From: Myxococcota bacterium
Lineage (GTDB): Bacteria; Myxococcota_A; Bradymonadia; UBA4248
Assembly (NCBI GenBank): GCA_045599245.1
Contig: JAZRVP010000077.1
Location: 17,691 to 81,690, forward strand
DNA length: 64,000 bases
Direction: 5' to 3'
The translations under genes and the position numbers were made by a program. The notes beneath the pieces are model-generated. The model did no database searches. It was not told the DNA's origin and saw nothing but the letters and a program-made list of their open reading frames with translations. This document shows positions 7,503 through 64,000 of this stretch, piece after piece. Within the stretch, counting starts at the first letter, position 1. Every line of letters begins with the position of its first letter.

Positions 7503-7884
7503 AGAGGAATGCGACCTCGGAACGGCCTTGAATACGGGTGAATACGGCGGTTGTGACTCCGAATGCAAGCGTATGCCGTACTGCGGTGATGGCATCGTGA
7601 CGGATCCCGAAGTCTGTGATGATGGCGTCAATGACGGCAGCTATGGCGGATGTGCGAAGAGCTGCATGAGTCTCGGCGGATACTGCGGCGACGAAAAAGT
7701 CCAGAAAGAGGCTGGAGAGGAGTGCGATTATGGCACCGGAAACAACGACGAAACGTATGGCGGATGCACGACATCCTGCAAATTCGGACCGTTCTGTGGT
7801 GACGGCATCGTCAACGGCAGTGAAGAATGCGATTACAAGAGTTCTGAAGCGTGTTCCCAAACCTGCCGAACCCTCGTCAATTAA
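7498..7884 (+). pseudogene. orphan fragment of a DUF4215 (Myxococcus-type Cys-rich repeat) protein, probable gene remnant
   Basis: The frame opens at a stop codon inside the aminotransferase stop region and begins mid-repeat (..EECDLG..). TTG is the only candidate start. No signal peptide. Three CGDGIV..(E)CDDG../YGGC..SC repeats. Confidence 0.45.
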
Positions 7885-28292: not shown

Positions 28293-28478
28293 GCACCAAA
28301 TAAGGATTCAAGTGTTTTAGATGATTGATGAAACAAACTGAAATATATCATAAAATGATATAAATGAACAAATATAGCGATACAATATATATATCAATAA
28401 AAGTTTGGTTGGATTGATACTGCACTTTTAAATTAAAATGTTTGGTTTTGTGTTTTGTCCAAAGCAAAAGGAGAAGAT

Positions 28479-44639: not shown

Positions 44640-44690
44640 ACTGTCGTCTGAATTGGATTCATTCAGACGGCATCATTTTTGAGTGTTTCA
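44640..44690 (+). terminator. terminator-like hairpin
   Basis: gtcgtctgaattggattcattcagacggc followed by atcattttt. Confidence 0.5.
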
Positions 44691-44736
44691 AGTCTTTTTC
44701 TGCGTCTCTCATCACTTTTTTCACGGAGATTTACAC

Positions 44737-46806: not shown

Positions 46807-49800
46807 TTATTTGCTCATCATTTGTTTGCATATACTGTTTGCAGACATATATGCCTCAAGAGACTGACCATCGAAAACGATTTCCGGTTTGTCGTCAGCA
46901 TCGGTATAGGCAATCCATGCGCCTTTGACGCGATCTGAAGAGGAGGCTGAAAGACGAGTTTTTCCAAGACTTCCAATGCCTTCCCATTTGCCGTTTTTAA
47001 TGACTTTTGCTTTATAGCTGAATTTTGTTTTTTCGGGTTTATTGCCACGTGAGAGTTCGCCACTGCCTTGAAGAACGAAGCTGACGGCATGGGAAGTGTC
47101 GGTAATGCCGAGGTTTCCAGCGAATTTTCCGACTTCAGCAAAAGCTGTATTACAAAGTGAAGTCAGAACGGGAACGGGGACTGAGGTACTTCCGACAGAA
47201 ATCGGGCTCCCGAAAACGGTGTTACAATCGAAGAGTTTTGTGAACTCATAAGCGCCGTTATTATCGACAAATTTATCAGAAAGAACGGTTTGGAAAGCTT
47301 CGATGAGGAATTTGCCGTATCTGAAATTGACGAGGTCATCGGTTACAACAAATTTGTTTTCTACGACTTTGGCTTCTTTCCACGAGCTTTCACTGACGGG
47401 TGAAATGGGACGTTTTTCACCTTTTTTAATGATATCAAAGTTAGAATATTTAATTTTTCCATCATAAACGCCGTCCATTTCAGTCAAATTCATGCTGCCG
47501 ATAAGTTTGACGAACTGAATGGAATCGAAGGCATCGCAGACGGTTTTTTGAACATTTTCAGGGGAAAGATATTTATCGACGAGAGGTTGAACGATTGTTT
47601 TCACAACGGCTCGAGTAGCTTGTGAATTACGTTCAATCGCGGATTCATAAAAAATATTGGCACATGGACAGTTGCAACTTGTATAAAATACCTTTTGCCC
47701 AATGTTTTCAACACTTCCCATTGCATTTTTATTATATTCACTACATGAATCGACTTTTTCCAATTTTTGATCTTTTCCTGGGTATGTACAAACGGAATGA
47801 TCATATTCATAGAAAGCTTTTAAACATATATTTGCTCTTTCGGATTTATAATCAGTAGCACCAACATCATCAAAAACGATATAATTGACGATATGATCGG
47901 TGATAAGGTTTGCGGGATCTTTATTAACGAATTTATTATAATTTTCGATGAATTTTTCGAGACTGTTGCCAAGTTCTGTACCTTCTTTGAGGTATGGAGC
48001 GAGGTCGAGGACGGTTTCGGTCGTGTAATTGGTATTTTGTTGAATTTCATCGGGGATGGGGCCGAGTTTGATGGTGGCATTGAGATCGCGAACGGGTTTG
48101 CAGACATCTTTTGTGGAGCCATCATCCAAGGTGACTGTGTATTTATCGGCTTTTTTGCATTTGAGAGGGGAGTATGCGGGGCCAAAGCTGAAAGGGCCTT
48201 CACAACCGATGGCAACCGGTTTGTCGCCCTGATTTGCGACGGCATAAATGATATATTTTTGAGGAGTCGAAGACCGATCAGAAGCCTTATAGCTGTCACC
48301 GGCATCTGTTCCTTCGAGGCTGCAGAAGTTAGGTGCACCGCCCAGGCTGCTTGACGATGGGAGGGCTTCGCAATCTGATTCGCGAGTATCTTTGTCATTG
48401 ATGACGAAATTGCTTCCGCAGGAATGATAATCAGCCGAAAGGGCATAATAGCTGACGCTGTCAAAAGAAGTTCCAGAGACTCCGGAACTGTCGGCAGTCA
48501 CGTTGATATTGTTGATATTGGTGGGTTCGGACTTATCGGACATTGTACCTGTGACGGTGACATAAATGCTTTTTGCATCCATATTTTCGCCATTTTTGAG
48601 GTTTGGATACATGGCATTGACCTGATAAGTGGTTGCTTTGGAACCGGCATTAAATTTAATGGTGGCTACGCCTTTGTCATCGGTGTGAGATTTTGAAGCT
48701 GACAGAGAGGCATCGGCTCCGGCCGGAGAATTGAGTGTCCAGAGGATATTGTCGTGAACGGGTTCCATGGTGGAACCGTTTTTCCAGATGAGTTTGACTT
48801 TGAGATCGATAGATTCTCCAACTTTAGTCGTTTTATAGCTGTCGCCGTCGACGATGAGTTCGAGGCACTGGGCTTCGCCTTCTTTATTTTTCTGAGGAAT
48901 ACAGCATTCGGGTTTGTTGCCTTCGTTATAGCATTTGGCAATATCCTCTTCTTTGGTGCAAGTTATGAGGGAGCCGCAGCTGCTTACTTTTTCGGGATAA
49001 ATCGGATTTGGTGTCCAGGGGTCTTTTGGCTGTTCCGGTTCTGATGGCGGGAGACTGGGAATGGAGCCCGTGTCATTTGTTGTCGTGATCGTGAAGACAA
49101 ATGGAATGAGATTGTCTTTGTCATCTTTGGCATTGGGGTGGAAGACACTGACGTAGTAGAGGGAATCGACACCGGTGCCGGTATAGAAATTGTTGGTGGC
49201 AATACCGTCATTGTTGGTAATGGGAGAATTATTTGTAATCGTAGCATTGTCATTGACGGATTTGCTGCGGGTAACTTTCCACCACGTTTTTGTATTTTTA
49301 ATTGGTTTAGGGGGATTGGAGTCTTTTTCGGAGACAAGAACCTGAAGTGCGAGTGTTTTGACGACTGGGGATGAGATGGACTGAACGCCACCCTCGGGCA
49401 GAGAGATTGTGACGGGACCGATATCAGGAATGTAGGGGTCCATTTCCGATGGCGGAGTTTTGGCGTCCTCAACATTTACTTCACTGTGATCACCGCCCTG
49501 GTAGGTTGGAAGATTCAGGGAGTTGTTGACGAGAATAGGAATGAGGACTGGCTTTGCCTTTTTGGCGCTTGTTTCGAGGAAATATAGGGCATCATAAGCA
49601 TTTCCGGTCCAGAATGGAATTGTAAATACTTTTGAATCGTCGGCCAGATCCGTCAAGTGTTCGACTTTGTCTTTATTTTTAGCGGAATCAATGAGCATCC
49701 CGTTATTGGATTTATAGGAACCTTTTTTGAGATCGACATTAATTGTTCCACTTTTTTCAGTATCTTTTTTAATATCTATAAGTTTTACATAAACGGATTG

Positions 49801-51513
49801 AGTTTCATCCAAAGAGGCGTGAATGATAGAGGAACAAGGTCCAAAAGTGCCGTCCTTTTTGGTGCTGCAAATCATTTTTTGAGTCGCGTCATCACATAAT
49901 TTTACATATTTTGTATAGAGGCAAGGATTGGGGGCAACCTCAACTTTTCCGTCATAGTTGGTATCATAACCCTGGAAGAAGGTTTCGCCCTTGCCATCTT
50001 GAGCAAAAACGAGACGAACGGGATCATCCAGTTTATCGCCGTTGACATCGGTCATGATATTTGTACCGTCGCAAGTCTGGAGAGACCAGGTTCGGTCTGT
50101 ATTTTGAACGAGTTTGCAGTTAAAGGACTTGTCTTTGGGGCAGCCGTCATTGCCGGTGCATTTGTCCATATCACCGCATTTTTTCTCGATTTCGACTTTG
50201 ACAGGGTCGAGTTCTTCATCATCGATTTGAGTTTTACCGTCTTCAACAGGATAAAAAATACCTTTGAGAAGATCGGCTGCGGCGCAGCCGGAAAGCACTT
50301 TTGAACCCGCTTCGTCTTTAGCCTTGGATGTATCAACTTCAAGGCCTTCTTCCGTCAATTTGGCTTCATCTCCGGGGTCGCCTGTTTTACCCATGGCATA
50401 GGTTGTGATGGTATAAGTTACGTTTTCGCTGGCCAATGGGTGATAGAAATTGAGGAAATATTTGGCACCATAAGATGAAGCGGTGGAAACATTGACCCAA
50501 AACTCACCATTTTGGTCTGTTTCACCGCAATTTTTATTGATACCTTTTTGTTTTTTTGAATCTTCAAATTGTTTGCCATTTTTGAATTTACCTTTTGAAG
50601 AGGCATCTTCACTGACAAAAGAAGGATTTTTTGCAGTAGTTTCAACGAAAGTCCAGCAGATGGGTTCCTTTTCAACACTGCAGTCAGCTCCGGTGGGATC
50701 ATCCTTGCAGGTGCCGGTTAATTTTACGCGAAGTTTTTGTTCGGATTCTGCATAAAGTTTTTGTTCGAGATTATCGAGATTGACGAGTATGGCTGATGTC
50801 AGATTTGAAGTTTTGTCCGTACTTGTATCTGTTTCATCATTGACTGTGTCTGTTGTTCCCTCAGTGAGGTCGTCACTGATTTGAGGAATTTCATGGACAT
50901 AAACATCGACGCTGTTTTTTGAATTTTTGACGCAATCTTCATTGTTTTGACAATCGGCCTGCCATACGGTGACGCGATACATGGGTTTTGTTGCGTGATA
51001 AGAAGTCCCGGTGGAGAGGCGGAAGGTGATTTGATTGTTGACGGGTTTGACAATGATTTGGGTATCGGTCGATGTATCGTCCTTTTTTAAACGATAATCC
51101 GAATCGACTGAGAGTGAGCCGTTGGCGCCGGCAGCTTTTTCCAGTGTGATGACAAACTGCTGAACTGCACCTTTGGTATCTCCTGCGACAAAATCAACAT
51201 TAAATTCATTGATCTGATTGATATGGGTTTTAAAGGTGCCGCTGGGTGATAGGGTAATGCTTTCGAAACTCTCGTATTGTCCTGTACTTCCTGTAAACTG
51301 CTTACCGGGCTCTTTAGATGAAGATGTATTTAGCCCGCTGCCGGAAGTTCCGAGAATGGCTGCTTCATTTTCTGTTCCAGTGGCATATTTGGTTCCGCCG
51401 ACATCGACGGGTTCGCCACTGGCGCGACGCGAAGACCATGTTTCCGTATTTGCGCATCCAAAGAGACTGAGAGCACAAATATATAGTGCCATTCTCGTGT
51501 ATGAAGCTTTCAT
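46807..51513 (-). CDS. giant lipoprotein paralog 1 (1568 aa), unknown function
   Basis: Start re-assigned to MKASYTRMALYICALSLFG|CANTE with a perfect GGAGGT RBS. Paralogous over most of its length to 52000-57873 (e.g. RRASGE..GANGSL..TGTSY..PMY.V.VW.AD). Many conserved Cys pairs. Confidence 0.8.
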   Translation of the reverse strand: MKASYTRMALYICALSLFGCANTETWSSRRASGEPVDVGGTKYATGTENEAAILGTSGSGLNTSSSKEPGKQFTGSTGQYESFESITLSPSGTFKTHINQINEFNVDFVAGDTKGAVQQFVITLEKAAGANGSLSVDSDYRLKKDDTSTDTQIIVKPVNNQITFRLSTGTSYHATKPMYRVTVWQADCQNNEDCVKNSKNSVDVYVHEIPQISDDLTEGTTDTVNDETDTSTDKTSNLTSAILVNLDNLEQKLYAESEQKLRVKLTGTCKDDPTGADCSVEKEPICWTFVETTAKNPSFVSEDASSKGKFKNGKQFEDSKKQKGINKNCGETDQNGEFWVNVSTASSYGAKYFLNFYHPLASENVTYTITTYAMGKTGDPGDEAKLTEEGLEVDTSKAKDEAGSKVLSGCAAADLLKGIFYPVEDGKTQIDDEELDPVKVEIEKKCGDMDKCTGNDGCPKDKSFNCKLVQNTDRTWSLQTCDGTNIMTDVNGDKLDDPVRLVFAQDGKGETFFQGYDTNYDGKVEVAPNPCLYTKYVKLCDDATQKMICSTKKDGTFGPCSSIIHASLDETQSVYVKLIDIKKDTEKSGTINVDLKKGSYKSNNGMLIDSAKNKDKVEHLTDLADDSKVFTIPFWTGNAYDALYFLETSAKKAKPVLIPILVNNSLNLPTYQGGDHSEVNVEDAKTPPSEMDPYIPDIGPVTISLPEGGVQSISSPVVKTLALQVLVSEKDSNPPKPIKNTKTWWKVTRSKSVNDNATITNNSPITNNDGIATNNFYTGTGVDSLYYVSVFHPNAKDDKDNLIPFVFTITTTNDTGSIPSLPPSEPEQPKDPWTPNPIYPEKVSSCGSLITCTKEEDIAKCYNEGNKPECCIPQKNKEGEAQCLELIVDGDSYKTTKVGESIDLKVKLIWKNGSTMEPVHDNILWTLNSPAGADASLSASKSHTDDKGVATIKFNAGSKATTYQVNAMYPNLKNGENMDAKSIYVTVTGTMSDKSEPTNINNINVTADSSGVSGTSFDSVSYYALSADYHSCGSNFVINDKDTRESDCEALPSSSSLGGAPNFCSLEGTDAGDSYKASDRSSTPQKYIIYAVANQGDKPVAIGCEGPFSFGPAYSPLKCKKADKYTVTLDDGSTKDVCKPVRDLNATIKLGPIPDEIQQNTNYTTETVLDLAPYLKEGTELGNSLEKFIENYNKFVNKDPANLITDHIVNYIVFDDVGATDYKSERANICLKAFYEYDHSVCTYPGKDQKLEKVDSCSEYNKNAMGSVENIGQKVFYTSCNCPCANIFYESAIERNSQATRAVVKTIVQPLVDKYLSPENVQKTVCDAFDSIQFVKLIGSMNLTEMDGVYDGKIKYSNFDIIKKGEKRPISPVSESSWKEAKVVENKFVVTDDLVNFRYGKFLIEAFQTVLSDKFVDNNGAYEFTKLFDCNTVFGSPISVGSTSVPVPVLTSLCNTAFAEVGKFAGNLGITDTSHAVSFVLQGSGELSRGNKPEKTKFSYKAKVIKNGKWEGIGSLGKTRLSASSSDRVKGAWIAYTDADDKPEIVFDGQSLEAYMSANSICKQMMSK

Positions 51514-51714
51514 TTTTACCTCCAAACGATTTACGTTGATGTTTCGCATTTATTCCAAAAAAATAATGGCCTTTGTTTATACAAAATTGCACGTTCCTTT
51601 TGAAGAATAATTCTAAAAATAATAAATGATGATGTTACATCTCAGCCAGGGAACCTCTGAACAAAACGATAATTTAAGGAAGTAATTGTCGAGAGCCAGT
51701 CGAGACGTTGTGTA

Positions 51715-51999: not shown

Positions 52000-54900
52000 T
52001 TATTTTTCGAAGCCATAAACTCTGATGTCATCGAAGCGAAGCATCTTGTAGGCATCGGCATTGTCACTGCTTCCTTTAGCCGCTGTCGGCCAGAATTTGA
52101 ATTTGGTAAATGCCCGTCCGGTTGTTTTGAATTCAACGGATTTGGTTACCCATTCGCCTTCGGGAGCAATCAGTGAAGACTCCTCTTTGACGTCGATTGA
52201 TTTCGGGCCGTCATCAATTGTTCGATAATTGATGACACGACCGTCGCCATAGACTTTGGCTTCCACCTTGGTGATTTCATAATTTCGATTGCTCGTAGAA
52301 TTGCTAATCATGAACAGGCAGTTCGTTTCTGAGCCACTGACCACCTTTGTTCCCACTGCGTTGAGAGCACTGTCGGAACCGGCCACGAGTTTAACCGGAT
52401 ACTTGGGACAATCATAAATCAAAGCAAAGTCACTCTGTTTTATGCCGGCTTTGGCTATGATGTTGGAACTGAGGTCAGAATTCAGTCCTTCGTCATCTGC
52501 CGTTGTTCCATTCCAGTATGAACCGAAATCCCATTCTGCAAGAATGACTGAAACAGGTTCCGGCTTGGATTCATCCTTTCCGGAACTGTCGACACATGAA
52601 GTGAGTTCGCTGTTCATGACACAGGCAGGGAGATCGCATTTGCCGTCACAGGCTTGTTTAACCTGCTCTTTGATGCATTCGCTCCGTTCTTTGCTGCCGC
52701 AGATCGTATTAAGTGCCGCTATGAAATGCTCGTCTTCGATCGAAGACGGAACTGAGTCGTCATCGGAAATAAGTCCATTTTTGTCGCAGACAAAAATGGT
52801 CGGGTTGTCTTTACATGCCGGAATGTTGCACGCCGTTTCAAGACACTTACTGTTGGTGATTCCTTCGCCGTTGTTGATGATTTCTTCTTTGTTGGCTTGA
52901 CAGTCGGACGGATTACCCTGTTTGCGGCAGGCTTCATTGGCGGCTTTGATAATCTGTGATGCGCTGGAACCTGAATATAGACTGTTGACGGCGCCTTTTC
53001 CATTGACTTTGGTGCAGACAACGATCGAAGTCTTGTCCAGACATTCAGGCTTTTCACAGGCTGTTCCTGAGGTTCCCTTGGCAATGTTGCTGTATGCCCC
53101 CAGGAGACATGCTTTATTTGACTTGTATTCTGAGAGGCTGCTCTTGAGATTTTGCATACAGATGCTGTTTTCAGCCTTGTATTCGTCAAGAGATTTCGTC
53201 CCGAATTTCATCTCCGGCTCTTCTGCACCATCGGTATATCCGATCCAGACACCATTGATCTTGCCATTATCTGACTTGCCATCGGCCTTTGTCGCGCCAA
53301 GATTGCCTGTTCCTTCCCATTTGCCGCCCTGAATGACAGAGGCTTGACAGGCAATCTTGGTTTTGTCCGGAAGACATGTATTTCCTTTGGCAAATTCGCC
53401 TGTTCCCTGAAGTTTAGCACTCAAAGGAATCGTACCCTTGTCTGAAAGATCGGCAGTATAATCACCGAGTTTTCCAAGGGCCGTACGACAAATTCCCTTC
53501 AAAAGATCGGAGCTGACGCTCGTTATACCAAGATTGATATCGCTGTCGAATATCTTGTCGCAATCAATGCCTTTGGTCAGGTCAACCTTTCCGGTCTTCA
53601 AATCCAGGGCGCCAATGAATTTGCCAAGAATCTGATACAGGAATTTGCCATAAGTGAAGTTGATGGTGAAATCGGAAATCGAAAGCTGTGTGCCATTCGT
53701 GACCTTGGCTTCTTTCCATTTGCCTTCGATAACGGTTCCTTCGAGATCGATTGCTGTGTCTCCAACATAAGGAATCATGGCTCCTGAATATCGGGCACTT
53801 CCTACGTATTTTCCGTCTTTTTCTTCCAAAGACATTTTTCCGACCAGTGTTACAAACTGAAGGCCGTCAAAGACTTCACATAATTTGCTCTGAAGAGCGT
53901 CCGGACTCAAATATTTGTTGATGAGACTTTTGAGTAGCTTTTGCGCCAGCGGTGCCAGCTTTTTGCCTATCGAATTGACAGCAGTCCAGTAATAAAGATC
54001 GGCACACATGCAGTTGCAGTTGGTATAAAATGCCTTATCGTTTTCTTTGACACTGCTGTCACTCCAGTCACTGCACGAACTGATGTGCGTCAGTTTGCCG
54101 CTATTGTTTTTATACCGACATTTTTCCGGATTTTTGTCATAAAAGAACGTGATACAATCATCTGCATCGGGGGTTCCAGTATCTTTGCCTGTATAAACTA
54201 TCGATTTGGTCAAGGTATCGATAATCTTATCGCCTGGGTTGGTACCGACAAATTTGGCATAAGTATCCGTCAGCTTTTGCAATGCCTGACCGATTTCCGA
54301 GTCATTGCCCATCAAAGGTCCGAGATTGACCATCGTTTTGGTATTGTACAGGGGCTGAATGACCGTCGGTATTTCGCTCAAAGACACGGTTGAAACCAGT
54401 TCACGAACGGGTTTGCAGGTCTTTTTCTCCGTTCCATCCTTGTCAATTTTAAACGTTGCGTTGTCGTCGTCACATTCCTTGGGAACTGTTGATGAACTGA
54501 AGCTGATGTATGGCTCGCAGCCGTATGCAACTGGCGAGTTGCCTTTGTTGGCAATAGCAAAAATCGTATATTTGTCTGCAGTTGGGGCGGTTGCTGTCGC
54601 CTTGTAAGAATCTTCTTTTTTGCTCCCCGTCAGGTTGCAGAAGTTTTTGCCGCCCGTGGTCGTTTTATATTCGCCACAGGCTTCCTGGCGCGCGTCTTTT
54701 TCTGCCAAAAAGAACTTTTCTGAGCAGTCATAGAGATCAGCCGGAAGGGCATAATAGCTCACGGAATCAAACTCAATCTTAGGGATGTTTGATGTGTTGG
54801 CCTTGAGCGTAATATTGTTCACATCAGAGCTTTCTGTTTTGTCATCCAGTGTGCCTTTGACGTTCACCATGATGCTCTTGGGAACCATGTGTCCATCTTT

Positions 54901-57873
54901 ATGAATATTGGGATACATGGCATTGATTCTGTAAGTTGTTGCCTTCGAACCGGTCTTGAAAAGTACGTTGGCATATCCATTTTTGTCAGACCCTGAACTT
55001 GAGCTAAGCAGGGCGCCATCGGCGTCTTTATTTCCATCGAGTGTCCAGTAAATCGTGTCTCGGATCGGGGTCACTTCGGAACCGTTTCTCCACACGAGAC
55101 GGACTTTGACTGAAATTGTGTATCCGACACCCGTCTGGATGACATCTTCGCCCTCGAAAATGAGTTCCAGACAGCCCTGTTTTTTGTCGGCGTTCATCTG
55201 CATCGATGGACAGCAGGCGGGTACCTCGCCGCCCTCCTGGCTGCATTTGGCTTTGTCTGATGCATTGCAACTGCATTCGCGTTCATCGCAGCCGACACCT
55301 TGCGGATATTTGGGGTTGGTCGCTTTGCCATCGACCTGCTTGAGATTGCCTTCGCAGTTGCCCTCGCAAACTGTTCCGTCTTCCTGGATGGTATCGCCCT
55401 CGGGACGACTTGGATCAGCCGGCAGATCACTCTCAAGCGCCCCCGTGTCATTCGTCGTTGTGATCTGGAAAACAAAGGGTTTTGGCTTGTTTTCTTCATC
55501 CAGATAATTGGGATGGAACACGCTGACAAAGTAAACGGAATCGTAGCCTGTGCCTGTATAAAATGCATCACTCGCCACACCTTTGCTATTCGTCATGGCT
55601 GTTGACGCGGTTAGGGTCGCATTGTTGTTCACGGATTTGCCGCGCGTGACTTTCCACCAGGTTTTGGTATCGGGTACGAGCGTCTTGCTCTTGTTATCTT
55701 TACGTACAAGAACCTGAAGATTCAGTGTTTTGACTACGGGCGAGGTGATTGTTGCCGAACCTGAGGCTACGGACAAGGTCACTTTGCCGATATCGGGAAT
55801 ATAGGGCTCTATGTCGGCTGGCGGCGTGTATATCGACGGATCATCCGGATCGGCCTTGTCGCCTTTGGCTGTCGGGATCGATATCGAATTGATAATGCGC
55901 AGTGGAATGAGAACAGGCTTCGTTTCATCTGCTGTCGTTTCGAGATAATACAGGGCATCGTATCCAGTCCCAGCCCAGGCTTCGATATTATATATTTTTT
56001 TGCTCGCTGATATCTTGACGCTTTCTACCAGCTTGCCATTTTCGTCCTTGAGCATGGCATTATTGGTCGCCAGGGCTCCTCGCTGAATCTCAACCTGGAT
56101 CTCGCCATCTGCGTTTTCCTTGCCGTTGTTATCCAGCTTTTTCACATAAATCGTGACATCTTCATCCAGCTTTGCACTGACCGTCGAGCACGTTCGGAAT
56201 GTTTTTTTATTGTCCGTGCTGCAGACAAATGAATATTTCGCTTTTTTACATATATCTTTATATTTTGAATACAAACAGGGGTCTGGGGCAACTTCGACTT
56301 TTCCGTCATAATTGATGTCATAACCCTGGAAATAGGTATTGCCTTCACTATCTTCGCCCATGACGAGACGGATCGGATCGTTCGTTTTGTCATCGTTGAT
56401 ATCCGTCATCAGCTGTTTGCCTTCGCAGGACTGAACGGACCATGTCTTGTCACTGTTCTGAACCATCTTGCAGCGGAACGAATCGGCACTGCAGCTGTCT
56501 TTGCCGCTGCATTTGTCCATATCGCCGCACTGATCTTCGATGGAAATCTTTACCTTGTCGTCATCTGAATAGAAAATACCCTTGAGAACTTTGGCGGCAG
56601 CACAGCCCGAGAGTTCATTTCGACCGTCAGCGTTCGGTTTGGCTTCGCTCAGATCTGTCTTCAGGGCGTCGTCCGAGAGCAAGGCTTCATCGCCCGGATC
56701 TCCCAGAGTATCGGGCATCACAAACGTCCGGATGTCATACGTCAGAGGCGCCGCAACCTTGTGGAAAAAGTTGAGATAATATTTGGAATTATAGGTGCTG
56801 CTCGTGGATACTTCCGCCCAGAAAATTCCGTTAGAATCGGTCTTTCCGCAGCCCGTATTTTTTCCTCTTTTATTCTTCTTATCCGCGAACTGCTTGTTAT
56901 CCGTGTATTTTTTGTCGCTGTCTTGCGAGACGAAACCTTTGTTTTTTTCGCTCGTTTCGACAAATGTCCAGCATACGGTCTCATTGCCAACGCAGCTGTC
57001 ATCCGCTTCGTCTTCTGTGCTTTCGCCGTCTTCTGTGCTCGGTTCCTCGTCTTTTTTGCCCGGAGCTGTATCCGCACATTTGCCTGAGAGTTCGACGCGA
57101 AGTCTTTTCTCGTCATCGACAAAGAGCTGCTGGTCGAGTTCGTCCAAATTGGTGAATACTGCCGTCGAGAGTTTGGAATCCTTCAGTCCGTCGGGAACGG
57201 TCAGGTCATTGTCGACATCCAGCGTGCCTTCTTCATAACCGTCGCTCATTTGAGGCGGCTTTCGGACGATAATTTTCGCCTCCAGCGGCTGGGCATCTTC
57301 TTCGGCATCGGCATGCCACACATTCACGTAATACATCGGCGTCTTGCTGTTGTACGAGGTACCTGTCTGGACGCGGAATGTGAACGAGTAATCGGTTCTC
57401 GGTGTTATGACGGCGCGTGTTTCCGTCGGCGGGAACTTGTCGGCATCATACAGAGACTCGCTGTCAACGATAAGCGAACCGTTTGCGCCGGCTGCGCGTT
57501 CCAAAACTATGACAAACTGCGGTTTGTTGGCATGACGATCGGCTTCCGGTGATATTTCAACCGTAAATTCAATGATTTGATTGATAAATGTTTTCGCATT
57601 ATCCGGTTCTATGGACAGTTTCAGGTCATCATACTGCCCCTTCTCGCCAAGCATATCTTTGCTCGGTTTGGTTTTGGGGTTGTTGGCAAGTCCTTTGTTT
57701 TCCTTGCCAAAGACATTGTCTTCGTTATCCGTCGAAGTAGCATAATTGCCGCCCGCAATTTCTATCGAATCGCCGCTTGCACGTCTTTCAACGATTTCTT
57801 CCGTATTGGCACATCCTGCCACGCTTAAAATGCAGAGGTAAAGGGATGCTCGCGACAATGTCATTTTTTTCAT
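52000..57873 (-). CDS. giant lipoprotein paralog 2 (1957 aa) with C-terminal extension ending in WDF-domain
   Basis: MKKMTLSRASLYLCILSVAG|CANTEE with an AGGAGG RBS. Paralog of 46807-51513. It has an extra approximately 400 aa: Cys-rich modules plus a terminal approximately 190-aa domain starting 'VILAEWDFGS'. Confidence 0.8.
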   Translation of the reverse strand: MKKMTLSRASLYLCILSVAGCANTEEIVERRASGDSIEIAGGNYATSTDNEDNVFGKENKGLANNPKTKPSKDMLGEKGQYDDLKLSIEPDNAKTFINQIIEFTVEISPEADRHANKPQFVIVLERAAGANGSLIVDSESLYDADKFPPTETRAVITPRTDYSFTFRVQTGTSYNSKTPMYYVNVWHADAEEDAQPLEAKIIVRKPPQMSDGYEEGTLDVDNDLTVPDGLKDSKLSTAVFTNLDELDQQLFVDDEKRLRVELSGKCADTAPGKKDEEPSTEDGESTEDEADDSCVGNETVCWTFVETSEKNKGFVSQDSDKKYTDNKQFADKKNKRGKNTGCGKTDSNGIFWAEVSTSSTYNSKYYLNFFHKVAAPLTYDIRTFVMPDTLGDPGDEALLSDDALKTDLSEAKPNADGRNELSGCAAAKVLKGIFYSDDDKVKISIEDQCGDMDKCSGKDSCSADSFRCKMVQNSDKTWSVQSCEGKQLMTDINDDKTNDPIRLVMGEDSEGNTYFQGYDINYDGKVEVAPDPCLYSKYKDICKKAKYSFVCSTDNKKTFRTCSTVSAKLDEDVTIYVKKLDNNGKENADGEIQVEIQRGALATNNAMLKDENGKLVESVKISASKKIYNIEAWAGTGYDALYYLETTADETKPVLIPLRIINSISIPTAKGDKADPDDPSIYTPPADIEPYIPDIGKVTLSVASGSATITSPVVKTLNLQVLVRKDNKSKTLVPDTKTWWKVTRGKSVNNNATLTASTAMTNSKGVASDAFYTGTGYDSVYFVSVFHPNYLDEENKPKPFVFQITTTNDTGALESDLPADPSRPEGDTIQEDGTVCEGNCEGNLKQVDGKATNPKYPQGVGCDERECSCNASDKAKCSQEGGEVPACCPSMQMNADKKQGCLELIFEGEDVIQTGVGYTISVKVRLVWRNGSEVTPIRDTIYWTLDGNKDADGALLSSSSGSDKNGYANVLFKTGSKATTYRINAMYPNIHKDGHMVPKSIMVNVKGTLDDKTESSDVNNITLKANTSNIPKIEFDSVSYYALPADLYDCSEKFFLAEKDARQEACGEYKTTTGGKNFCNLTGSKKEDSYKATATAPTADKYTIFAIANKGNSPVAYGCEPYISFSSSTVPKECDDDNATFKIDKDGTEKKTCKPVRELVSTVSLSEIPTVIQPLYNTKTMVNLGPLMGNDSEIGQALQKLTDTYAKFVGTNPGDKIIDTLTKSIVYTGKDTGTPDADDCITFFYDKNPEKCRYKNNSGKLTHISSCSDWSDSSVKENDKAFYTNCNCMCADLYYWTAVNSIGKKLAPLAQKLLKSLINKYLSPDALQSKLCEVFDGLQFVTLVGKMSLEEKDGKYVGSARYSGAMIPYVGDTAIDLEGTVIEGKWKEAKVTNGTQLSISDFTINFTYGKFLYQILGKFIGALDLKTGKVDLTKGIDCDKIFDSDINLGITSVSSDLLKGICRTALGKLGDYTADLSDKGTIPLSAKLQGTGEFAKGNTCLPDKTKIACQASVIQGGKWEGTGNLGATKADGKSDNGKINGVWIGYTDGAEEPEMKFGTKSLDEYKAENSICMQNLKSSLSEYKSNKACLLGAYSNIAKGTSGTACEKPECLDKTSIVVCTKVNGKGAVNSLYSGSSASQIIKAANEACRKQGNPSDCQANKEEIINNGEGITNSKCLETACNIPACKDNPTIFVCDKNGLISDDDSVPSSIEDEHFIAALNTICGSKERSECIKEQVKQACDGKCDLPACVMNSELTSCVDSSGKDESKPEPVSVILAEWDFGSYWNGTTADDEGLNSDLSSNIIAKAGIKQSDFALIYDCPKYPVKLVAGSDSALNAVGTKVVSGSETNCLFMISNSTSNRNYEITKVEAKVYGDGRVINYRTIDDGPKSIDVKEESSLIAPEGEWVTKSVEFKTTGRAFTKFKFWPTAAKGSSDNADAYKMLRFDDIRVYGFEK

Positions 57874-58446: not shown

Positions 58447-61400
58447 TCAGTTCACATCGGTACGACACGTCGGCGAACAGCCGTCACCATCCAGATTGTT
58501 GCCGTCATCGCACTGTTCATCATGCGTGACCACGCCGTCTCCGCAGTGCGGTCCTCGCTTGCAGGCCGTCGTGCATCCGTCGTACAGGTCGTCGTTGTTC
58601 TTGCTGCCATTATCGCATTCCTCGCCGGCTGATATGACGCCGTCACCGCAGGATGTATGACAGTCCGATTTGCCCGTGTTCAAAAATCCGTCCAGCGTGA
58701 GCTGATACGTCGAACCCGGCCAGCAGCGTTCAGCCTGGAAGAAATGAAGCTCATAAATGCCGTTTTCGTAGATGTCATAGCGCGGATCGCACTTGGTGTC
58801 GAGCGTTTCCCCGTCAAGGACACAAAGAGAGTTGCTGAGCGTGTTCTGATCGGAATTGCCTGACTGCATGCCGCCAAGATCGACAAACAGCGTCTTGTTG
58901 ATAAATGCCCAAACGTCGTCATTTCCGCTGAATTTAAGCGTTTCACCGCCTTTGTACTGGAAATAGGTATGAAGCGCCGAGGTGAAATTGCCTTCGCTTT
59001 CTGCTCTGGGCGATGCGGTGCCTGAATGATAGCCCTGGCCGGCGATGGGCCCCCAGTTGTCAGCAAAAAAGGTGTATCGATCGTGATCATTCGGATCCTG
59101 CGTCATTCTCAGCTTCGTGTTGATCTGGATATTGACGCCGGGGGCATAGCGATACCAGTAATGGAATGTTCCGGCACAGCTGACATGCGAGGTAATAGCG
59201 ACGCCTGTGTTTCGGATGGTGCAGTTTTTGGAAGCCCAGTTCGGTACGAGAACCATCTTGCCATCGGCATCCAGGTGGTTTTCAACCATGCCGCCGCACC
59301 CGGATCCGCCAAATGTGCATCCAAAATCAGGGAAGCCTTTGCGCGTTGAACCTGAAATTGAACTTGAAAACGTCGAACGGCTTGCGCAAGAGGCATCGAC
59401 CGCCAGAATATTGTTATATATGGAGCGAGTCATAAAGCCGCCCGTTCCTTCATTGGAGGCATTCCATGAGGCGGGTTCTCCGGCAGTCGTCGTCTGTGAC
59501 GGATTTCTGAAATCATAGTACGAAATGTCCAGATCGATGGTCGGTGCACTTGCCATGTCTCTGAAGTCCGTGCAGACATAGCCCTGTTCGATTTCGCATC
59601 GTTTGGAGCAGCCGTCACCGCCGATGAGATTGCCGTCGTCACAGGCTTCGGCCGGAACAAAACCGAATTCGCAATTGTAATGGTCTTTTAAATCTTTTTC
59701 TGTCGTATAGGGGGCATTTTTGTCTTTGTCCGCCTCTGTTTTGCAGATCGTTTTACCGGCACTGTCACGTCGTGGAATCATCCAAAGCGTAATGCCGTCG
59801 CCGCATTTCGGGCTGTAGGTTACGATGCCGTCTTCATCGATGAATTCTGTGAACATGAGTTCGCGTTTGCAGCTCGGTGAGCAGCCGTCATTCGGGCTCT
59901 TGTTGCCGTCATCGCATTCCTCGCCCACATCCCTGTAGCCGTCGCGGCAGCGACCTTTCTGGCATTGGTAGACGCCGGCGATGATGCCGCAGTGATAGCC
60001 TGTTTCGATACGGCACTGGTTGCATCCTGAACCCACGATGTTTCTCGAATTGCCCGATGCATCCACACCAAGATCGCACTCTTCCCAGATGTTGAAATCC
60101 GTTTCACGGTCAATGATGCCGTTGCCACACAAACCAACGGAGGGAACGCAGGCTCCGCCGGGATTCGTGGGACATTTGAAATTGGCTTCGACCTGACACT
60201 GCGCCGAACAGCCGTCGCCAGGTGACCGGTTGCCGTCATCACAGGTTTCTCCATTCTGAACGATACTGTCACCGCATACACCTTTGGCTGGATCGCAAAC
60301 AGTCAGGCCGTTTTTAGCTGTCGTGCAGCGAAAACCGGTTTCGAGTTCGCACTGCGCCGAACAGCCATCTCCCGATACACTGTTGCCGTCATCGCACATC
60401 TCGCCGTAGGCCATGATGCCGTCACTGCAACTCTTCGCTGTGCAACGGTTTCCTGCAGTTGCACATTCATAACCCGGATCAATTTTGCCGTGGGTGCAGC
60501 CGTCATTGTCGATCGAATTGCCGTCATCGCATTCTTCGTAGCCATCTGGATCCACAATGCCATTTCCATAAGCGATGAGCATACAGGCCACATTCTGACT
60601 CTCACATTCTGTACAGGCATTGACCATAACCGTTGAAAAGATGCCGTTTTCGTCCGGCACTTCCTTCCCGACCATGTGCTGGCATTTGTAGCCTTCTTCA
60701 ATCTGGCATTCTGCAGTGCAGCCGTCGCCGGAGATTCTGTTGCCGTCATCACAATTTTCACCTCTGTCGAGATAGCCGTCTCCGCATGACAGCGGCATGC
60801 ACCACAATCCGTTCGTGCAGTCAAAACCTTCTTCGACTTCGGTGCAGTTCAGACATCCTTCGTTGTCGTTGGCAGAGCCGATGTCACATATTTCATGATC
60901 AGGATCGAGCTCATCGTCGCCGCAATGCGGTCCCAGCGTGCACGAGGTTGTGCAGCCATTATAAAGATAGTCGTCATTCTCATCCCCGTTGTCGCATTCC
61001 TCACCAAAAGCCTCATCGACATGTCCGTCACCGCAATAATGCGCAAAATGGCATGTGTCGTCACAACGCGGTTTTCCATTCGCATCAACGCCATATTTGG
61101 CCGGATTATCGGAATCGCATTGCTCGCCATTATCGAGTTTTCCGTCACCGCATTTCATCGACTGGCAGGTCATCTTCCTGTCTTCATCGATCGAACACCA
61201 AATCTGACCTTCTTCGGAGACCCACATCTCCTTTCCGTCGGATGCACTCTTGCGTTCAAAATCGTCAAAACTCCATTTGCATTTTGATGTGCAGCCATCT
61301 TCATTATCATCATTGCCATCGTCGCACTTTTCCCCCTTATCGACGATGCCGTTGCCGCATACACTTTTATCGTTATCTTTTTTCTTGCCCTTGTCGCCTT

Positions 61401-61521
61401 GCTCATCATCGGATCCGCTCTTATGAACCTTGAGCTCTAGTTGCTGGGAATCATCGTTGCATCCCACATAGCAAAGCAAACTAGCGCAAATCCACAACAA
61501 TCCTAACTTTGACTTTCTCAT
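58447..61521 (-). CDS. DUF4215 (Myxococcus-type Cys-rich repeat) protein with C-terminal fibro-slime/PA14-like domain, probable lipoprotein
   Basis: Start re-assigned to MRKSKLGLLWICASLLCYVG|CNDD with an AGGAGG RBS. At least 14 repeats of 'CGDG(I/V)xxxGE(E)CDDGNxxxGDGCSxxC'. The C-terminal approximately 300 aa, 'YTFFADNWGPIAGQGY..GNDDVWAFINKTLFVDLGG..ELHFFQAERCWPGSTYQLTL', match the fibro-slime (PA14-like) consensus. Confidence 0.8.
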   Translation of the reverse strand: MRKSKLGLLWICASLLCYVGCNDDSQQLELKVHKSGSDDEQGDKGKKKDNDKSVCGNGIVDKGEKCDDGNDDNEDGCTSKCKWSFDDFERKSASDGKEMWVSEEGQIWCSIDEDRKMTCQSMKCGDGKLDNGEQCDSDNPAKYGVDANGKPRCDDTCHFAHYCGDGHVDEAFGEECDNGDENDDYLYNGCTTSCTLGPHCGDDELDPDHEICDIGSANDNEGCLNCTEVEEGFDCTNGLWCMPLSCGDGYLDRGENCDDGNRISGDGCTAECQIEEGYKCQHMVGKEVPDENGIFSTVMVNACTECESQNVACMLIAYGNGIVDPDGYEECDDGNSIDNDGCTHGKIDPGYECATAGNRCTAKSCSDGIMAYGEMCDDGNSVSGDGCSAQCELETGFRCTTAKNGLTVCDPAKGVCGDSIVQNGETCDDGNRSPGDGCSAQCQVEANFKCPTNPGGACVPSVGLCGNGIIDRETDFNIWEECDLGVDASGNSRNIVGSGCNQCRIETGYHCGIIAGVYQCQKGRCRDGYRDVGEECDDGNKSPNDGCSPSCKRELMFTEFIDEDGIVTYSPKCGDGITLWMIPRRDSAGKTICKTEADKDKNAPYTTEKDLKDHYNCEFGFVPAEACDDGNLIGGDGCSKRCEIEQGYVCTDFRDMASAPTIDLDISYYDFRNPSQTTTAGEPASWNASNEGTGGFMTRSIYNNILAVDASCASRSTFSSSISGSTRKGFPDFGCTFGGSGCGGMVENHLDADGKMVLVPNWASKNCTIRNTGVAITSHVSCAGTFHYWYRYAPGVNIQINTKLRMTQDPNDHDRYTFFADNWGPIAGQGYHSGTASPRAESEGNFTSALHTYFQYKGGETLKFSGNDDVWAFINKTLFVDLGGMQSGNSDQNTLSNSLCVLDGETLDTKCDPRYDIYENGIYELHFFQAERCWPGSTYQLTLDGFLNTGKSDCHTSCGDGVISAGEECDNGSKNNDDLYDGCTTACKRGPHCGDGVVTHDEQCDDGNNLDGDGCSPTCRTDVN

Positions 61522-61933
61522 CCAATCCTCCTGATGCCGCCTGTTCGACTTACACCGTTCAGGCGGCAAATCATTCTGCATTATGACTTCTGTCACATGC
61601 TTATCCTTCTTTGTGAGGCTATATAAAGCCATTACGTCAATGCTTCAATAGTTCAAGGATAAATATGCCAAATACTTGCGGAAAATGCGTGATGGCAGGA
61701 TATTTAATTTACCTAAATAACCTCCATCGGTTCTCCTCATTTTTAGCCAAAATATCGTTTTTATTCAGAGTATCCACCGAAATGGAACGTCTTATGAGGT
61801 GATGGAATACCCAAAAGCTTGCGTATCACGAAAGAAGCCACATGAATGAAGTCAACCATCCATGCGGCTGTGATTATAAGTTACTTATCTGAACGTGGGT
61901 TTAATCGGACCGTTACGGTTCGATGAAACAAAC

Positions 61934-64000
61934 TTATTTTGGAACGTAGATGGCAAATTTGTCGTTAAACTTGTACTGCTCCAAATAATTCAATTTGGGT
62001 TTGTCAAGCTGTGACAGGTTGAACACTCGATAATTGAAGCTGCCCCACCAGGTGCTGTTGACGGTTACAACCGATCCGGTACTTGTCGTCGTTTTAACCA
62101 TATCCGGTCTTGACGAACTTGAAATCTCTTTGGAAAGCGTAATCCATCCGTCAGGTCGATACTGATAACCGGGGGCAGCAACGATGAGTGTGCCGTTTGG
62201 AAGGTCAGATTTTGTAAAGATTTTTGTCGTCGCATAAGCAGATGTTTTTTCGTAGCTTCGGGTGATATATGTAGGAAATCTGTTGTTGTTAATTGTCCCT
62301 GTCCAGGAATAAGCCGTCGTCGGATTCCAGTAGCCGTCATTCAGGAGTTCAAGATCGAGCTTTTTATATTTAGAGGGATCATATCCTTTGTCTTTGAGAA
62401 CTTTATCCGTATTTACAGACTCCTTGGGAACAAAAATGGCCAATGCGGAGGACAGCGAATTCATCTCGCTGGCCGATAGTTCCGGACGTCCTTTTTTGGA
62501 GATATTAAATGCACGGTATTTAAAGTCTCCCCACCAACTGGTTGTAATGGGAACGATTTGTGTGGTCACCATGGCTGGACGGTCTGAACTTGAAACTGTT
62601 GTATTATACTCAGTCCAGGCTTCCGGACGATACTGATAACCGTCTTTGAGAACGATGACACTCCCAACGGGAAGTTCGTAACGGTTGAAAATTCGCGTTG
62701 CAGCGATTGAGTTCAGCAGCGACGTACTTGTGCCGCCTGTTTCGGCGCTTACGAGAATGGATGAACAGTTATTATCGATGTTTGTTATATTACAAATTGC
62801 CGCAGATGAACTTGAAGCATTGTAATAAGCATTTTTAATGACACCAAAAGGAAGCTCCTGATAATTATTCAGATTATATCCGGCATTGGTAAAGATTCTT
62901 TGAAGCTCGGTATTGGGCTTATACGTTGTTTCTGAAATGCCTTCAGTCGCCGGCGTGACGACAAATGGATTGCTGTAGGCATCGTTGACGGCTTTTTTTA
63001 TCGCTGCAATCATTCTATCCGTATAGAGCGGCTTATAGGCTGTTTCTAAATTTTTAGAGGCAACACCATTATGGTTGTACAGTGATGCCGTGGTGATGGA
63101 ACTGATATTTTCACCGGTAATCTGTTTGACCCACATCATGGCTAGTGCCAGTCTTCCCTGGCTCTTGGACAAATGATAACCGTCTCTGGTCAGATTGTCG
63201 CCAATAATGCTCGTCCTCAAATTCTGAATGGCCGTTCCGGCCGGAATGATTATGTTAATTTTGCTGTTGGTAAGGATCTGTTCTTTCGTCGTATTGACTG
63301 TGGTATTGTACATTTTAAGCTGATCTTTGCCATAATACACAAACTGTTTTCTGACGGATCCGGCTTGAAATGCCCATGGCATGTGCCAAATAATCTTTGC
63401 TTTGCTACTCTTTGCTTTTGCTTTGTCAATAATATAATTGATATCATTTTTACCTGTTCCGGAACTATCCAAAATATAGGAGCTAGCAATGCCGCCAAGA
63501 GGACTCGACTGCTGAACAGATATATAATCCCAACCATTATCCAGACCTTTTAATGTCTGGTTGCCGTAATATCCGGTTAAAACTTTATTATTAAATTTTC
63601 CCGTAAAATTGAATGCATCCGATGCTTTAAAGCTGTCAACAGTAATTAAACTGCCGCCATCCAGATTGGAATGAACCTGGAATGTATAATCATTTGTGTC
63701 TCCTTTAATAAAGGAAACATGCTCTGCAAGTGAACATCCACTGTAATATAGATTGGCAATGGTAATATCTTCATATCCAACAGCTGCCAGTACATCATAT
63801 AAATATGTCATGGCATCCTGAGAGAAGCTGTTTCCAATAGCTAATATGCTGATGGATTTTTTAGTGACAACGGGAATTTTAGTACATGGTGCACCAACGG
63901 TTGTACAAGTCCAACCGCTCTCGATTTGACATGAAGAAGAGCAACCGTCACCGTTTGCCGTGTTTCTGTCATCACAAGTTTCGCGTCCCGCCTTGATGCC
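61934..64000 (-). CDS. 5'-truncated (runs off window) secreted protein: DUF4215 Cys repeat, DUF4886-like SGNH-type domain(s) and 2 C-terminal beta-domains
   Basis: The frame is open from the window edge: ..CDDRNTANGDGCSSSCQIESGWTCT.. then 'KKSISILAIGNSFSQDAMTYLYDVLAAVGYEDITIANLYYSGCSLAEH' (DUF4886-like). Two C-terminal repeats ending 'WWG(D/S)F(K/N)YR(A/V)FN(I/L)S..(F/Y)VPK'. The track ATG at 63811 is internal. Confidence 0.7.
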   Translation of the reverse strand, partial: GIKAGRETCDDRNTANGDGCSSSCQIESGWTCTTVGAPCTKIPVVTKKSISILAIGNSFSQDAMTYLYDVLAAVGYEDITIANLYYSGCSLAEHVSFIKGDTNDYTFQVHSNLDGGSLITVDSFKASDAFNFTGKFNNKVLTGYYGNQTLKGLDNGWDYISVQQSSPLGGIASSYILDSSGTGKNDINYIIDKAKAKSSKAKIIWHMPWAFQAGSVRKQFVYYGKDQLKMYNTTVNTTKEQILTNSKINIIIPAGTAIQNLRTSIIGDNLTRDGYHLSKSQGRLALAMMWVKQITGENISSITTASLYNHNGVASKNLETAYKPLYTDRMIAAIKKAVNDAYSNPFVVTPATEGISETTYKPNTELQRIFTNAGYNLNNYQELPFGVIKNAYYNASSSSAAICNITNIDNNCSSILVSAETGGTSTSLLNSIAATRIFNRYELPVGSVIVLKDGYQYRPEAWTEYNTTVSSSDRPAMVTTQIVPITTSWWGDFKYRAFNISKKGRPELSASEMNSLSSALAIFVPKESVNTDKVLKDKGYDPSKYKKLDLELLNDGYWNPTTAYSWTGTINNNRFPTYITRSYEKTSAYATTKIFTKSDLPNGTLIVAAPGYQYRPDGWITLSKEISSSSRPDMVKTTTSTGSVVTVNSTWWGSFNYRVFNLSQLDKPKLNYLEQYKFNDKFAIYVPK

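Follow-up and report, generated by a model that had tools for sequence, protein, structure and literature searches.

Relatives of the two proteins in other organisms

Fibro-slime proteins of Fibrobacter succinogenes have been reported as cellulose binders (PMC3079729). They share the TIGR02148 model and a proposed role in cell-surface attachment to polysaccharide with gene A, one of two neighbouring genes, A and B, near the end of the window (the whole 64,000-nt stretch of DNA analysed here); DUF4215 arrays are not described for them in that report, and their phylum differs from that of gene A's host. A further group is the PA14 lectins and adhesins including MpIBP, other RTX-adhesin PA14 domains, yeast Flo5/Epa/Cea1 and RsgI3, which are 10-16% identical to gene A and are built on RTX/Ig repeats or Ser/Thr-rich stalks where gene A has a DUF4215 scaffold. 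In PA14 lectins a DD motif holds the sugar-binding Ca2+ ion, and PA14 domains may also bind proteins or be inserts in enzymes.

Close counterparts of gene A are the fibro-slime/DUF4215 proteins of Myxococcota, which have the same layout end to end: a signal peptide and Cys, about 8-12 Cys repeats, a head (about 300 aa; consensus TYRDF...GHPDF...GDDDVWVFING...FQAER), and C-terminal repeats. Gene A is 30-72% identical to this family across more than 90% of its length and is short for it (1,024 aa against a typical 1,150-1,700). Its host is a gut lineage of about 47% GC, in contrast to high-GC soil myxobacteria, and nothing in the protein differs in kind.

Gene B resembles Bacteroidales DUF4886 proteins (BACUNI_01406, PDB 4i8i, and BACON-DUF4886 lipoproteins), which carry the same SGNH Ser and DxxH motifs. 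Many of them also have its two beta-sandwiches (33-41% identity over 93% of the query), whereas their N-terminal module consists of BACON domains or a Thr-rich linker rather than a DUF4215 array; in a rough neighbour-joining (NJ) tree the fused DUF4215-DUF4886 forms make up a clade apart from them. DUF4886 is placed in the SGNH clan; most of the families characterised there are carbohydrate esterases or acyltransferases, and a review of the clan enters DUF4886 without known function (PMC9487903). A secreted array of twelve DUF4215 repeats also occurs in the diatom adhesive-trail protein Ca5255 (bioRxiv 10.1101/2023.03.06.531300). Like genes A and B this is a secreted DUF4215 array, there within adhesive material; unlike them it comes from a eukaryote and has no reported PA14 or SGNH head.

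Gene A encodes a probable cysteine-rich lipoprotein with a PA14-fold head

The features of gene A are as follows.

58447-61521, minus strand: gene A, a predicted 1,024-aa lipoprotein with a DUF4215 array, a fibro-slime/PA14 domain and two DUF4215 repeats (open reading frame, Pfam and NCBIfam matches)
61459-61521, minus strand: predicted signal peptide with terminal lipobox Cys, MRKSKLGLLWICASLLCYVG↓C (read directly from the sequence)
59557-61359, minus strand: eleven DUF4215/TIGR02232 cysteine-rich acidic repeats, aa 55-655 (regular-expression cores, HMM stretches)
58657-59556, minus strand: fibro-slime domain with PA14 fold, aa 656-955
58450-58656, minus strand: two C-terminal DUF4215 repeats, aa 956-1024, ending ...CRTDVN (regular-expression cores)
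58447-58449, minus strand: stop codon

The product is 100% identical to database protein P0001, and the ATG start at 61521 is backed by an AGGAGG lying 6 nt ahead of it, together with the predicted lipoprotein signal peptide. Lipidation is predicted from a lipobox judged by eye (...LLCYVG↓C): the Tyr at -3 is atypical, and an N-terminal '..GC' is kept in the family consensus, members having mostly ..G/A-C. The protein is rich in Cys (81 of 1,024 residues) and dominated by DUF4215 repeats (Pfam DUF4215, E 2.4e-52, 175 bits, gathering score 27; TIGR02232, E 5.3e-99, 324 bits, cut-off 20.8). The pattern CG(D/N)G..x..E.CD(D)GN..GDGC..C recurs through it and is also the consensus of 70 homologues. 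The first-pass annotation was right to assign the repeats to DUF4215 and slightly generous in counting at least 14, as the regular expression finds 13 cores (ExCD/QxCD). The eleven in the main array lie at aa 64, 133, 174, 210, 255, 329, 374, 425, 480, 534 and 625, the last of them containing a long insertion, and the two in the C-terminal tail belong to a segment also present in the family consensus. No tandem repeat was found in gene A at the DNA level, and recent duplication of its repeats was rejected on this ground.

The fibro-slime domain scores above its cut-off (TIGR02148, E 3.9e-15, 56.1 bits, cut-off 45, aa 845-941). The Pfam PA14 model (PF07691) reaches 19.8 bits (E 7.5e-4), below its gathering score of 24, in a match that covers part of the profile (positions 31-93 of 147) and whose alignment (aa 831-889) spans the DD motif; several homologues carry a precomputed PF07691 match. 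Neither gene A nor a family profile matched any PDB sequence, even at E<=1, so a fold comparison was needed, and comparison of a model confirmed a PA14 beta-sandwich. The structural matches span only about 125-140 of the 315 modelled residues, with a Cys-containing insertion of about 125 residues after the first strand, and the nearest of them are binders of diverse sugars (for example pectin, glucose, GlcNAc and mannose). The fibro-slime/PA14-like domain predicted earlier is thus present, by TIGR02148 score and by structure.

The head also retains a candidate sugar site. Its conserved GNDDVWAFIN motif, with D868-D869 at nucleotides 58915-58920, falls together with N875 within the family-conserved GDDDVWxFxN; in an alignment of gene A with 70 homologues, G226, D229 and N235 do not vary at all, and D227 and D228 hardly do. 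By motif position, D868-D869 may correspond to the DcisD site of lectins. Because the PA14 fold keeps this conserved DD motif, gene A most likely encodes an adhesin or lectin that binds carbohydrate in a Ca2+-dependent manner.

Gene B joins a DUF4215 array to an SGNH hydrolase

Gene B enters the window from its far edge, and its visible part comprises the following.

61934-64000+, minus strand: gene B, 3′ part of 688 codons, 5′ end outside the window (translation open to the window edge)
63878-64000, minus strand: last DUF4215 repeat of the N-terminal array (TIGR02232, E 5.8e-12, residues 1-32)
63035-63853, minus strand: DUF4886 SGNH-hydrolase domain (Pfam PF16227, PDB 4i8i alignment)
63821-63835, minus strand: GNSFS, Ser motif
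63173-63184, minus strand: DGYH, DxxH motif
62426-62911, minus strand: first C-terminal beta-sandwich domain, CBM-like, no Pfam model
61937-62410, minus strand: second C-terminal beta-sandwich domain, paralogue of the first (model)
61934-61936, minus strand: stop codon

The reading frame is open to position 64000, in keeping with the truncation noted earlier, and one Cys repeat is visible (TIGR02232, 45 bits). The N-terminus beyond the edge is inferred from the orthologues P0142-P0147, lipoproteins of 900-1,050 aa with a signal peptide and Cys followed by 5-8 repeats. The DUF4886/SGNH assignment is confirmed: PF16227 matches at 6.4e-58 (196 bits, gathering score 26.7), PDB 4i8i at 1.1e-35 in one search and 4.9e-37 in an alignment that conserves GNSFSQDA and RDGYHL, and both catalytic motifs, the Ser of block I and the Asp-x-x-His of block V, are in place and almost unchanged across 69 homologues. 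Where several SGNH domains had been proposed, a single one is found. Behind it come two beta-sandwich domains with 32% mutual identity (E 3e-29), which return CBM-like matches. With its SGNH motifs intact and a pair of CBM-like beta-sandwiches behind them, gene B most likely encodes a carbohydrate O-acyl (acetyl) esterase that these domains would hold on its substrate.

A common and a rare architecture

A family search with gene A returned about 4,893 proteins at E<=1e-5, and each of seven sampled members carries both TIGR02232 and TIGR02148. GTDB species genomes hold at least 188 gene A-type loci, almost all in Myxococcota with some in Phycisphaerales, in agreement with the link between the Cys repeat and Myxococcota drawn in the first-pass annotation; many relatives are already named 'fibro-slime domain-containing protein' by JGI. 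A DUF4215 array, a fibro-slime domain and further DUF4215 repeats are therefore a standard architecture in Myxococcota. The implication that fibro-slime domains come mainly from Fibrobacter and Dictyostelium is true of the literature and not of sequence databases. The DUF4215-DUF4886 fusion was found in six other protein clusters, which are monophyletic in the rough NJ tree. Describing the domain combinations as unusual accordingly fails for gene A and holds for this fusion, which is rare, confined to one clade and taxonomically informative for it, though unsurprising. The clade is an uncultured gut lineage. The host, labelled 'Proteobacteria bacterium' at NCBI, is an uncultured animal-gut bacterium related to myxobacteria; the nearest named relatives are Myxococcota, and the closest relatives come from ruminant gut metagenome-assembled genomes (for example from goat omasum).

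Genes A and B are an ordinary result, revealing no new kind of system and opening no long-standing question. What they offer, of small practical value, is that two large Cys-rich lipoproteins are now correctly annotated; a clade-specific swap of the N-terminal module on an uncharacterised SGNH esterase family, with DUF4215 replacing BACON; and, from a fibro-slime domain with a PA14 lectin fold, the testable hypothesis of Ca2+-dependent glycan binding through D868/D869. That hypothesis covers a very large family with no characterised member outside Fibrobacter.

Two proposed separate display proteins and their possible ligands

The reading that we favour, and consider reasonably probable, is that A and B are transcribed separately and encode lipoproteins that share a lineage-typical DUF4215 stalk and differ in their glycan-directed heads. 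In both proteins a lipid-modified Cys would be followed by a disulfide-rich acidic DUF4215 array, most likely forming a rigid stalk, with the protein placed putatively on the cell surface or in the periplasm. The gene A head, a fibro-slime domain built from a PA14-fold beta-sandwich and a large Cys-containing insertion, would bind sugar through Ca2+ held by the DD motif; the gene B head would combine the DUF4886 SGNH hydrolase with two CBM-like beta-sandwiches. Domain content, fold, motif conservation, phyletic distribution and the absence of conserved linkage were obtained directly. We know of no demonstrated activity for DUF4215, DUF4886 or, outside Fibrobacter, fibro-slime members. A broader version, which we put forward tentatively, makes the DUF4215 array of this gut clade near the Myxococcota a general, interchangeable lipoprotein display stalk for various glycan-directed heads and the functional counterpart of BACON in Bacteroidota; the DUF4886 and CBM head would be shared with, and possibly derived from, gut Bacteroidales or Clostridia, and the fusion would be a single domain swap that went with a myxobacterium-like lineage adapting to the animal gut.

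Two alternatives to this reading concern the ligand of gene A. The protein could be specifically cellulose-binding and serve plant-fibre attachment in the rumen or gut, as the TIGR02148 domain shared with F. succinogenes, the cellulose binding linked with its fibro-slime proteins (PMC3079729) and the ruminant origin of the closest relatives would suggest. We judge this unlikely, however: Phycisphaerales and the Myxococcota of soil and water, none of them specialised on fibre, have the architecture in abundance, the sugars bound by the nearest structural matches are diverse, and no cellulase or other CAZyme gene was found beside gene A. We think it equally unlikely that gene A serves a Myxococcota-like predator in predation or cell contact, its PA14 head recognising the cell envelope of prey or host by binding peptidoglycan, LPS, capsule sugars or a protein. 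The Myxococcota-like affinity, the type IV pilus genes, Ser/Thr kinases and M23 peptidases at loci of relatives and the occurrence of PA14 domains in cell-binding adhesins all fit such a role, but there is no direct evidence that this clade is predatory, and within the window gene A is unlinked to lytic enzymes. This alternative overlaps the two-lipoprotein reading and differs from it only in the ligand.

A probable relic of a gene A paralogue

A further piece of the repeat lies at the other end of the window.

7498-7884, plus strand: orphan DUF4215 fragment, a partial repeat and three more, ending ...CRTLVN (DUF4215 and TIGR02232 matches)

The fragment is real, as first proposed, with significant matches to both DUF4215 (5e-9, 36.8 bits) and TIGR02232 (3.2e-7, 30 bits). 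It is 55% identical in amino acids and 76% in nucleotides to the C-terminus of gene A and most likely represents what is left of the 3′ end of a gene A paralogue. Its 128 intact codons, the retention of every Cys pair and a hairpin plus T-run after its stop codon would suit a functional small gene, an explanation to which we give little credence. An in-frame TGA (7495-7497) directly precedes the open frame, which overlaps the stop codon (7500-7502) of the upstream aminotransferase gene; the fragment has no signal peptide, although disulfide-rich repeats must be exported, and no convincing start codon, the first possible one, TTG at 7528, having no Shine-Dalgarno sequence at the proper distance. 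The product aligns with the tail at the C-terminus of gene A and of its family members, and the fragment is missing downstream of the aminotransferase gene in two relatives (L088 and L089).

Neighbourhood and base composition

Three further features bear on the relation between genes A and B.

61836-61869, minus strand: terminator-like hairpin of 14 pairs followed by a T-rich tail (consensus scan and sequence, pattern match only)
52000-57873, minus strand: giant gene for an apparent lipoprotein, downstream of gene A
46807-51549, minus strand: second giant gene for an apparent lipoprotein, downstream of gene A

The hairpin lies 65 nt past the gene B stop codon, ahead of a gap of about 300 nt upstream of gene A. 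No DUF4886 neighbour is present beside the 72% orthologue of gene A (L001), the 41% relative (L002/L003) or any of 80 fibro-slime loci (L005-L084), and orthologues of gene B adjoin an M23 peptidase/FG-GAP gene instead. As the two genes are not kept side by side and are separated by a terminator-like hairpin, A and B are most probably not a system, and an operon was rejected for lack of conserved linkage. A single co-operating surface system made up of B and A and perhaps also the two giant genes, in which the lectin captures glycan and the esterase de-acetylates it, could appeal to four apparent lipoprotein genes in a row on one strand and to the stalk repeat common to A and B, but is the least probable of the alternatives, given this lack of conserved adjacency, the other neighbours of gene B orthologues, intergenic gaps of 300-570 nt, the hairpin, and giant neighbours with no recognisable domain.

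In the NJ tree, rooted at its midpoint, the fused DUF4215-DUF4886 clade is sister to all others, a placement compatible with transfer in either direction. The SGNH part of gene B has the lowest GC content of the genes measured (39%, others 44-54%). Recent horizontal transfer of gene B was considered on this basis and rejected, as GC3 varies widely over the window and the tree gives no direction.

Genes A and B are built from known modules

Genes A and B lie on the minus strand within the final 5.5 kb of the window, and the cysteine-rich repeat modelled by both DUF4215 (Pfam) and TIGR02232 also occurs in a detached open reading frame:

61521 to 58447, minus strand: gene A, 1024 aa, ATG at 61521; DUF4215 repeat array, fibro-slime/PA14 domain and two further DUF4215 repeats
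64000 (window edge) down to the stop codon at 61934–61936, minus strand: gene B, 3′ part, 688 visible codons, open at the edge
7498–7884, plus strand: orphan fragment, DUF4215 (E = 5e-9) and TIGR02232 (E = 3.2e-7)

The first-pass annotation, made by eye, described all three accurately and every HMM test that it proposed was called significant; as a description of domains, the finding is correct, though ordinary.

Gene A matches DUF4215 (E = 2.4e-52) and TIGR02232, the 'cysteine-rich acidic repeat' (E = 5.3e-99), bearing out its assignment as a repeat protein. Counting by the ExCD/QxCD core gives 13 repeats, 11 on the N-terminal side of the fibro-slime domain and 2 on its C-terminal side, rather than the 'at least 14' claimed earlier, and Cys makes up 81 of the 1024 residues. 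No tandem repeat was detected in gene A at the DNA level, and the repeats are therefore old and diverged. We prefer the start at 61521 because AGGAGG stands 6 nt upstream of the ATG and the translation opens with a lipoprotein-type signal peptide, MRKSKLGLLWICASLLCYVG followed directly by Cys; a longer reading frame from 61632 is less likely.

The proposed fibro-slime domain matches TIGR02148 (E = 3.9e-15) with 56.1 bits, above the curated cut-off of 45, whereas the Pfam PA14 match, although called significant, scores 19.8 bits, below the threshold of 24. An AlphaFold model of gene A residues 641–955, based on an alignment with 70 homologues (mean pLDDT 91, pTM 0.89), predicts that the fibro-slime domain is a PA14-fold β-sandwich with an insert of about 125 residues, containing helices and Cys, after the first strand. 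Neither gene A nor its family profile detected a solved structure in the PDB by sequence. Among the 70 homologues aligned with gene A, the most conserved stretch is GDDDVWVFxNG..VDLGG, in which G226, D229 and N235 are invariant and D227 and D228 nearly so. The gene A version, GNDDVWAFIN with D868–D869, falls within the part of gene A covered by the Pfam PA14 alignment. In PA14 lectins, the Ca2+ ion that binds sugar is held by a DD pair in this position, the 'DcisD' motif. Judged by the position of the motif, D868–D869 may be an equivalent Ca2+ site.

Gene A adds one more member to a large family that is already annotated. It is identical to a protein in the public NCBI database (P0001, encoded on a contig of 97,805 bp). 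Of the candidates scored, 4,893 matched at E ≤ 1e-5; identity across the best 120 is 29–72%, with alignments that usually span over 90% of the length. Many bear the JGI name 'fibro-slime domain-containing protein' or the NCBI name 'DUF4215 domain-containing protein', the named matches coming from Polyangiaceae, Bradymonadia and 'Proteobacteria bacterium' metagenome-assembled genomes (MAGs). TIGR02232 and TIGR02148 both exceed their cut-offs in all seven family members sampled, and the consensus of 70 homologues has its parts in matching order, including an N-terminal '..GC' and the C-terminal repeats. A scan for fibro-slime relatives in one genome per GTDB species recovered at least 188; the best 80 are almost all from Myxococcota (Polyangiaceae, Kofleriaceae, Sorangium, Myxococcus, Byssovorax and Sandaracinaceae), with a few from Phycisphaerales, and the closest is in the goat-omasum MAG RGIG2907 (49% identity). 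The domain combination of gene A is thus an ordinary one in Myxococcota. The second-best genome match for the fibro-slime domain (39% identity) lies on a 10-kb contig, CAVGZQ010000106.1, of a MAG labelled Bacteroidaceae, a label that may reflect misbinning, not a genuine presence in Bacteroidota.

Gene B is a rare fusion

The reading frame of gene B is open at the window edge, so that the 688 visible codons are its 3′ part. As had been proposed, a single visible Cys repeat (TIGR02232, E = 5.8e-12 on the first 32 residues) precedes a DUF4886 SGNH domain (E = 6.4e-58). This domain aligns to PDB 4i8i at 4.9e-37, and the two share GNSFSQDA, with the block I Ser, and RDGYHL, the block V DxxH; both motifs are nearly invariant among 69 homologues. 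DUF4886 is without a characterised member; in the SGNH clan, of which it is part, the characterised families are active mainly on carbohydrate O-acyl groups (PMC9487903). Only the six best clusters of 1,469 gene B matches combine DUF4215 with DUF4886 (P0142–P0147, 38–69% identity), and all six are lipoproteins with 5–8 repeats; the other matches differ at the N-terminus, with BACON domains (Bacteroidales), a Thr-rich linker or something else. The seven sequences that carry the DUF4215 fusion group together as a single clade in a rough neighbour-joining tree of the shared module, midpoint-rooted and without support values. Gene B joins known modules in a rare, clade-specific fusion.

At the C-terminus of gene B (61937–62911, minus strand), a β-sandwich domain of about 160 aa is duplicated, with conserved motifs GYQYRPEGW and WWG.F.YRAFN. 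This duplicated domain of DUF4886 C-termini is found in hundreds of proteins from Bacteroidales and Clostridia and is without a Pfam model.

None of the evidence supports genes A and B as one co-operating system. The neighbours of a 72% identical orthologue of gene A (L001) and of a 41% relative (L002/L003) are unrelated, a DUF4886 module lies near the fibro-slime gene in 0 of 84 loci (L001–L084), and gene B orthologues instead adjoin an M23-peptidase/FG-GAP gene. In the window, about 300 nt separate gene B from gene A, and a 14-pair hairpin with a T-rich tail lies 3′ of gene B. No new kind of system is involved.

In two related genomes (L085, 715–3048; L086, 13385–15757) the neighbour of the gene B orthologue encodes a protein of ~780 aa with Peptidase_M23, FG-GAP and MopE-like domains, and such a gene may also lie just past the window edge at 64000.

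Proposed function

The architecture described here is almost certainly right, and the functional reading is moderately probable. Both products would be exported and lipid-anchored at Cys. A DsbA-like gene is present at 8189–9031, and the DUF4215 array may fold oxidatively into a stiff acidic stalk. The head of gene A would be a Ca2+-dependent PA14 lectin, making the protein a polysaccharide adhesin, with plant fibre, mucus or the envelope of another cell as candidate ligands; Fibrobacter fibro-slime proteins have been linked to the binding of cellulose (PMC3079729). Gene B would display an SGNH esterase, accompanied by two CBM-like domains, that removes acyl groups from a glycan.

The orphan fragment

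The orphan repeat fragment is present as first annotated. Its frame opens at 7498, right after an in-frame TGA (7495–7497), and overlaps the stop codon of an aminotransferase gene (7500–7502); it has neither a signal peptide nor a convincing start. It holds one partial repeat and three more and ends in CRTLVN (compare CRTDVN in gene A). The last two repeats are 55% (amino acid) and 76% (nucleotide) identical to the gene A C-terminus, and the fragment matches the C-terminal consensus of the gene A family in the 70-homologue alignment. It is absent from relatives with a 65% identical aminotransferase, where a convergent gene follows directly. Expression of the fragment is conceivable; its best reading is as a putative 3′ relic of a paralogue left by rearrangement.

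About 300 nt away, at 8189–9031 (minus strand), is a gene whose product belongs to the DsbA/Thioredoxin_4 family and has a signal peptide of its own; this protein could plausibly help to form disulfides in the many Cys-rich proteins that the genome exports.

Host lineage and neighbouring genes

Relatives of the window's MutS2 at 55–79% identity are all unnamed or 'Proteobacteria bacterium' MAGs, after which identity drops to 45% or less; named relatives, with identities near 35%, belong to Myxococcales, Deltaproteobacteria and Sorangium. Genes for type IV pili, Ser/Thr kinases and ankyrin proteins are present at loci of relatives, and MAG sets from the ruminant gut are the source of the closest relatives. 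Together these observations led us to conclude that the window probably derives from an uncultured, gut-associated lineage allied to Myxococcota.

Directly 3′ of gene A, on the same strand, are two giant reading frames, 52000–57873 (minus strand, 1957 aa), which starts with a lipoprotein-type signal peptide (…CILSVAGC), and 46807–51549 (minus strand, 1580 aa); neither has a significant Pfam or NCBIfam match. In a 400-aa protein at 44683–45885 (plus strand), DUF1266 is joined to an Imm33 immunity-protein domain (E = 7.7e-24), and no obvious toxin gene was identified beside it. The 1289-aa protein at 28455–32324 (plus strand) ends in a glycine-rich domain whose Pfam family takes its name from ALK and LTK, receptor kinases of animals (PF12810, E = 1.3e-27, residues 1028–1287). 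Between 33904 and 42051 (plus strand), DUF58, VWA, VWA and BatD-like genes follow one another in an arrangement like that of the Bacteroides aerotolerance (Bat) operon.
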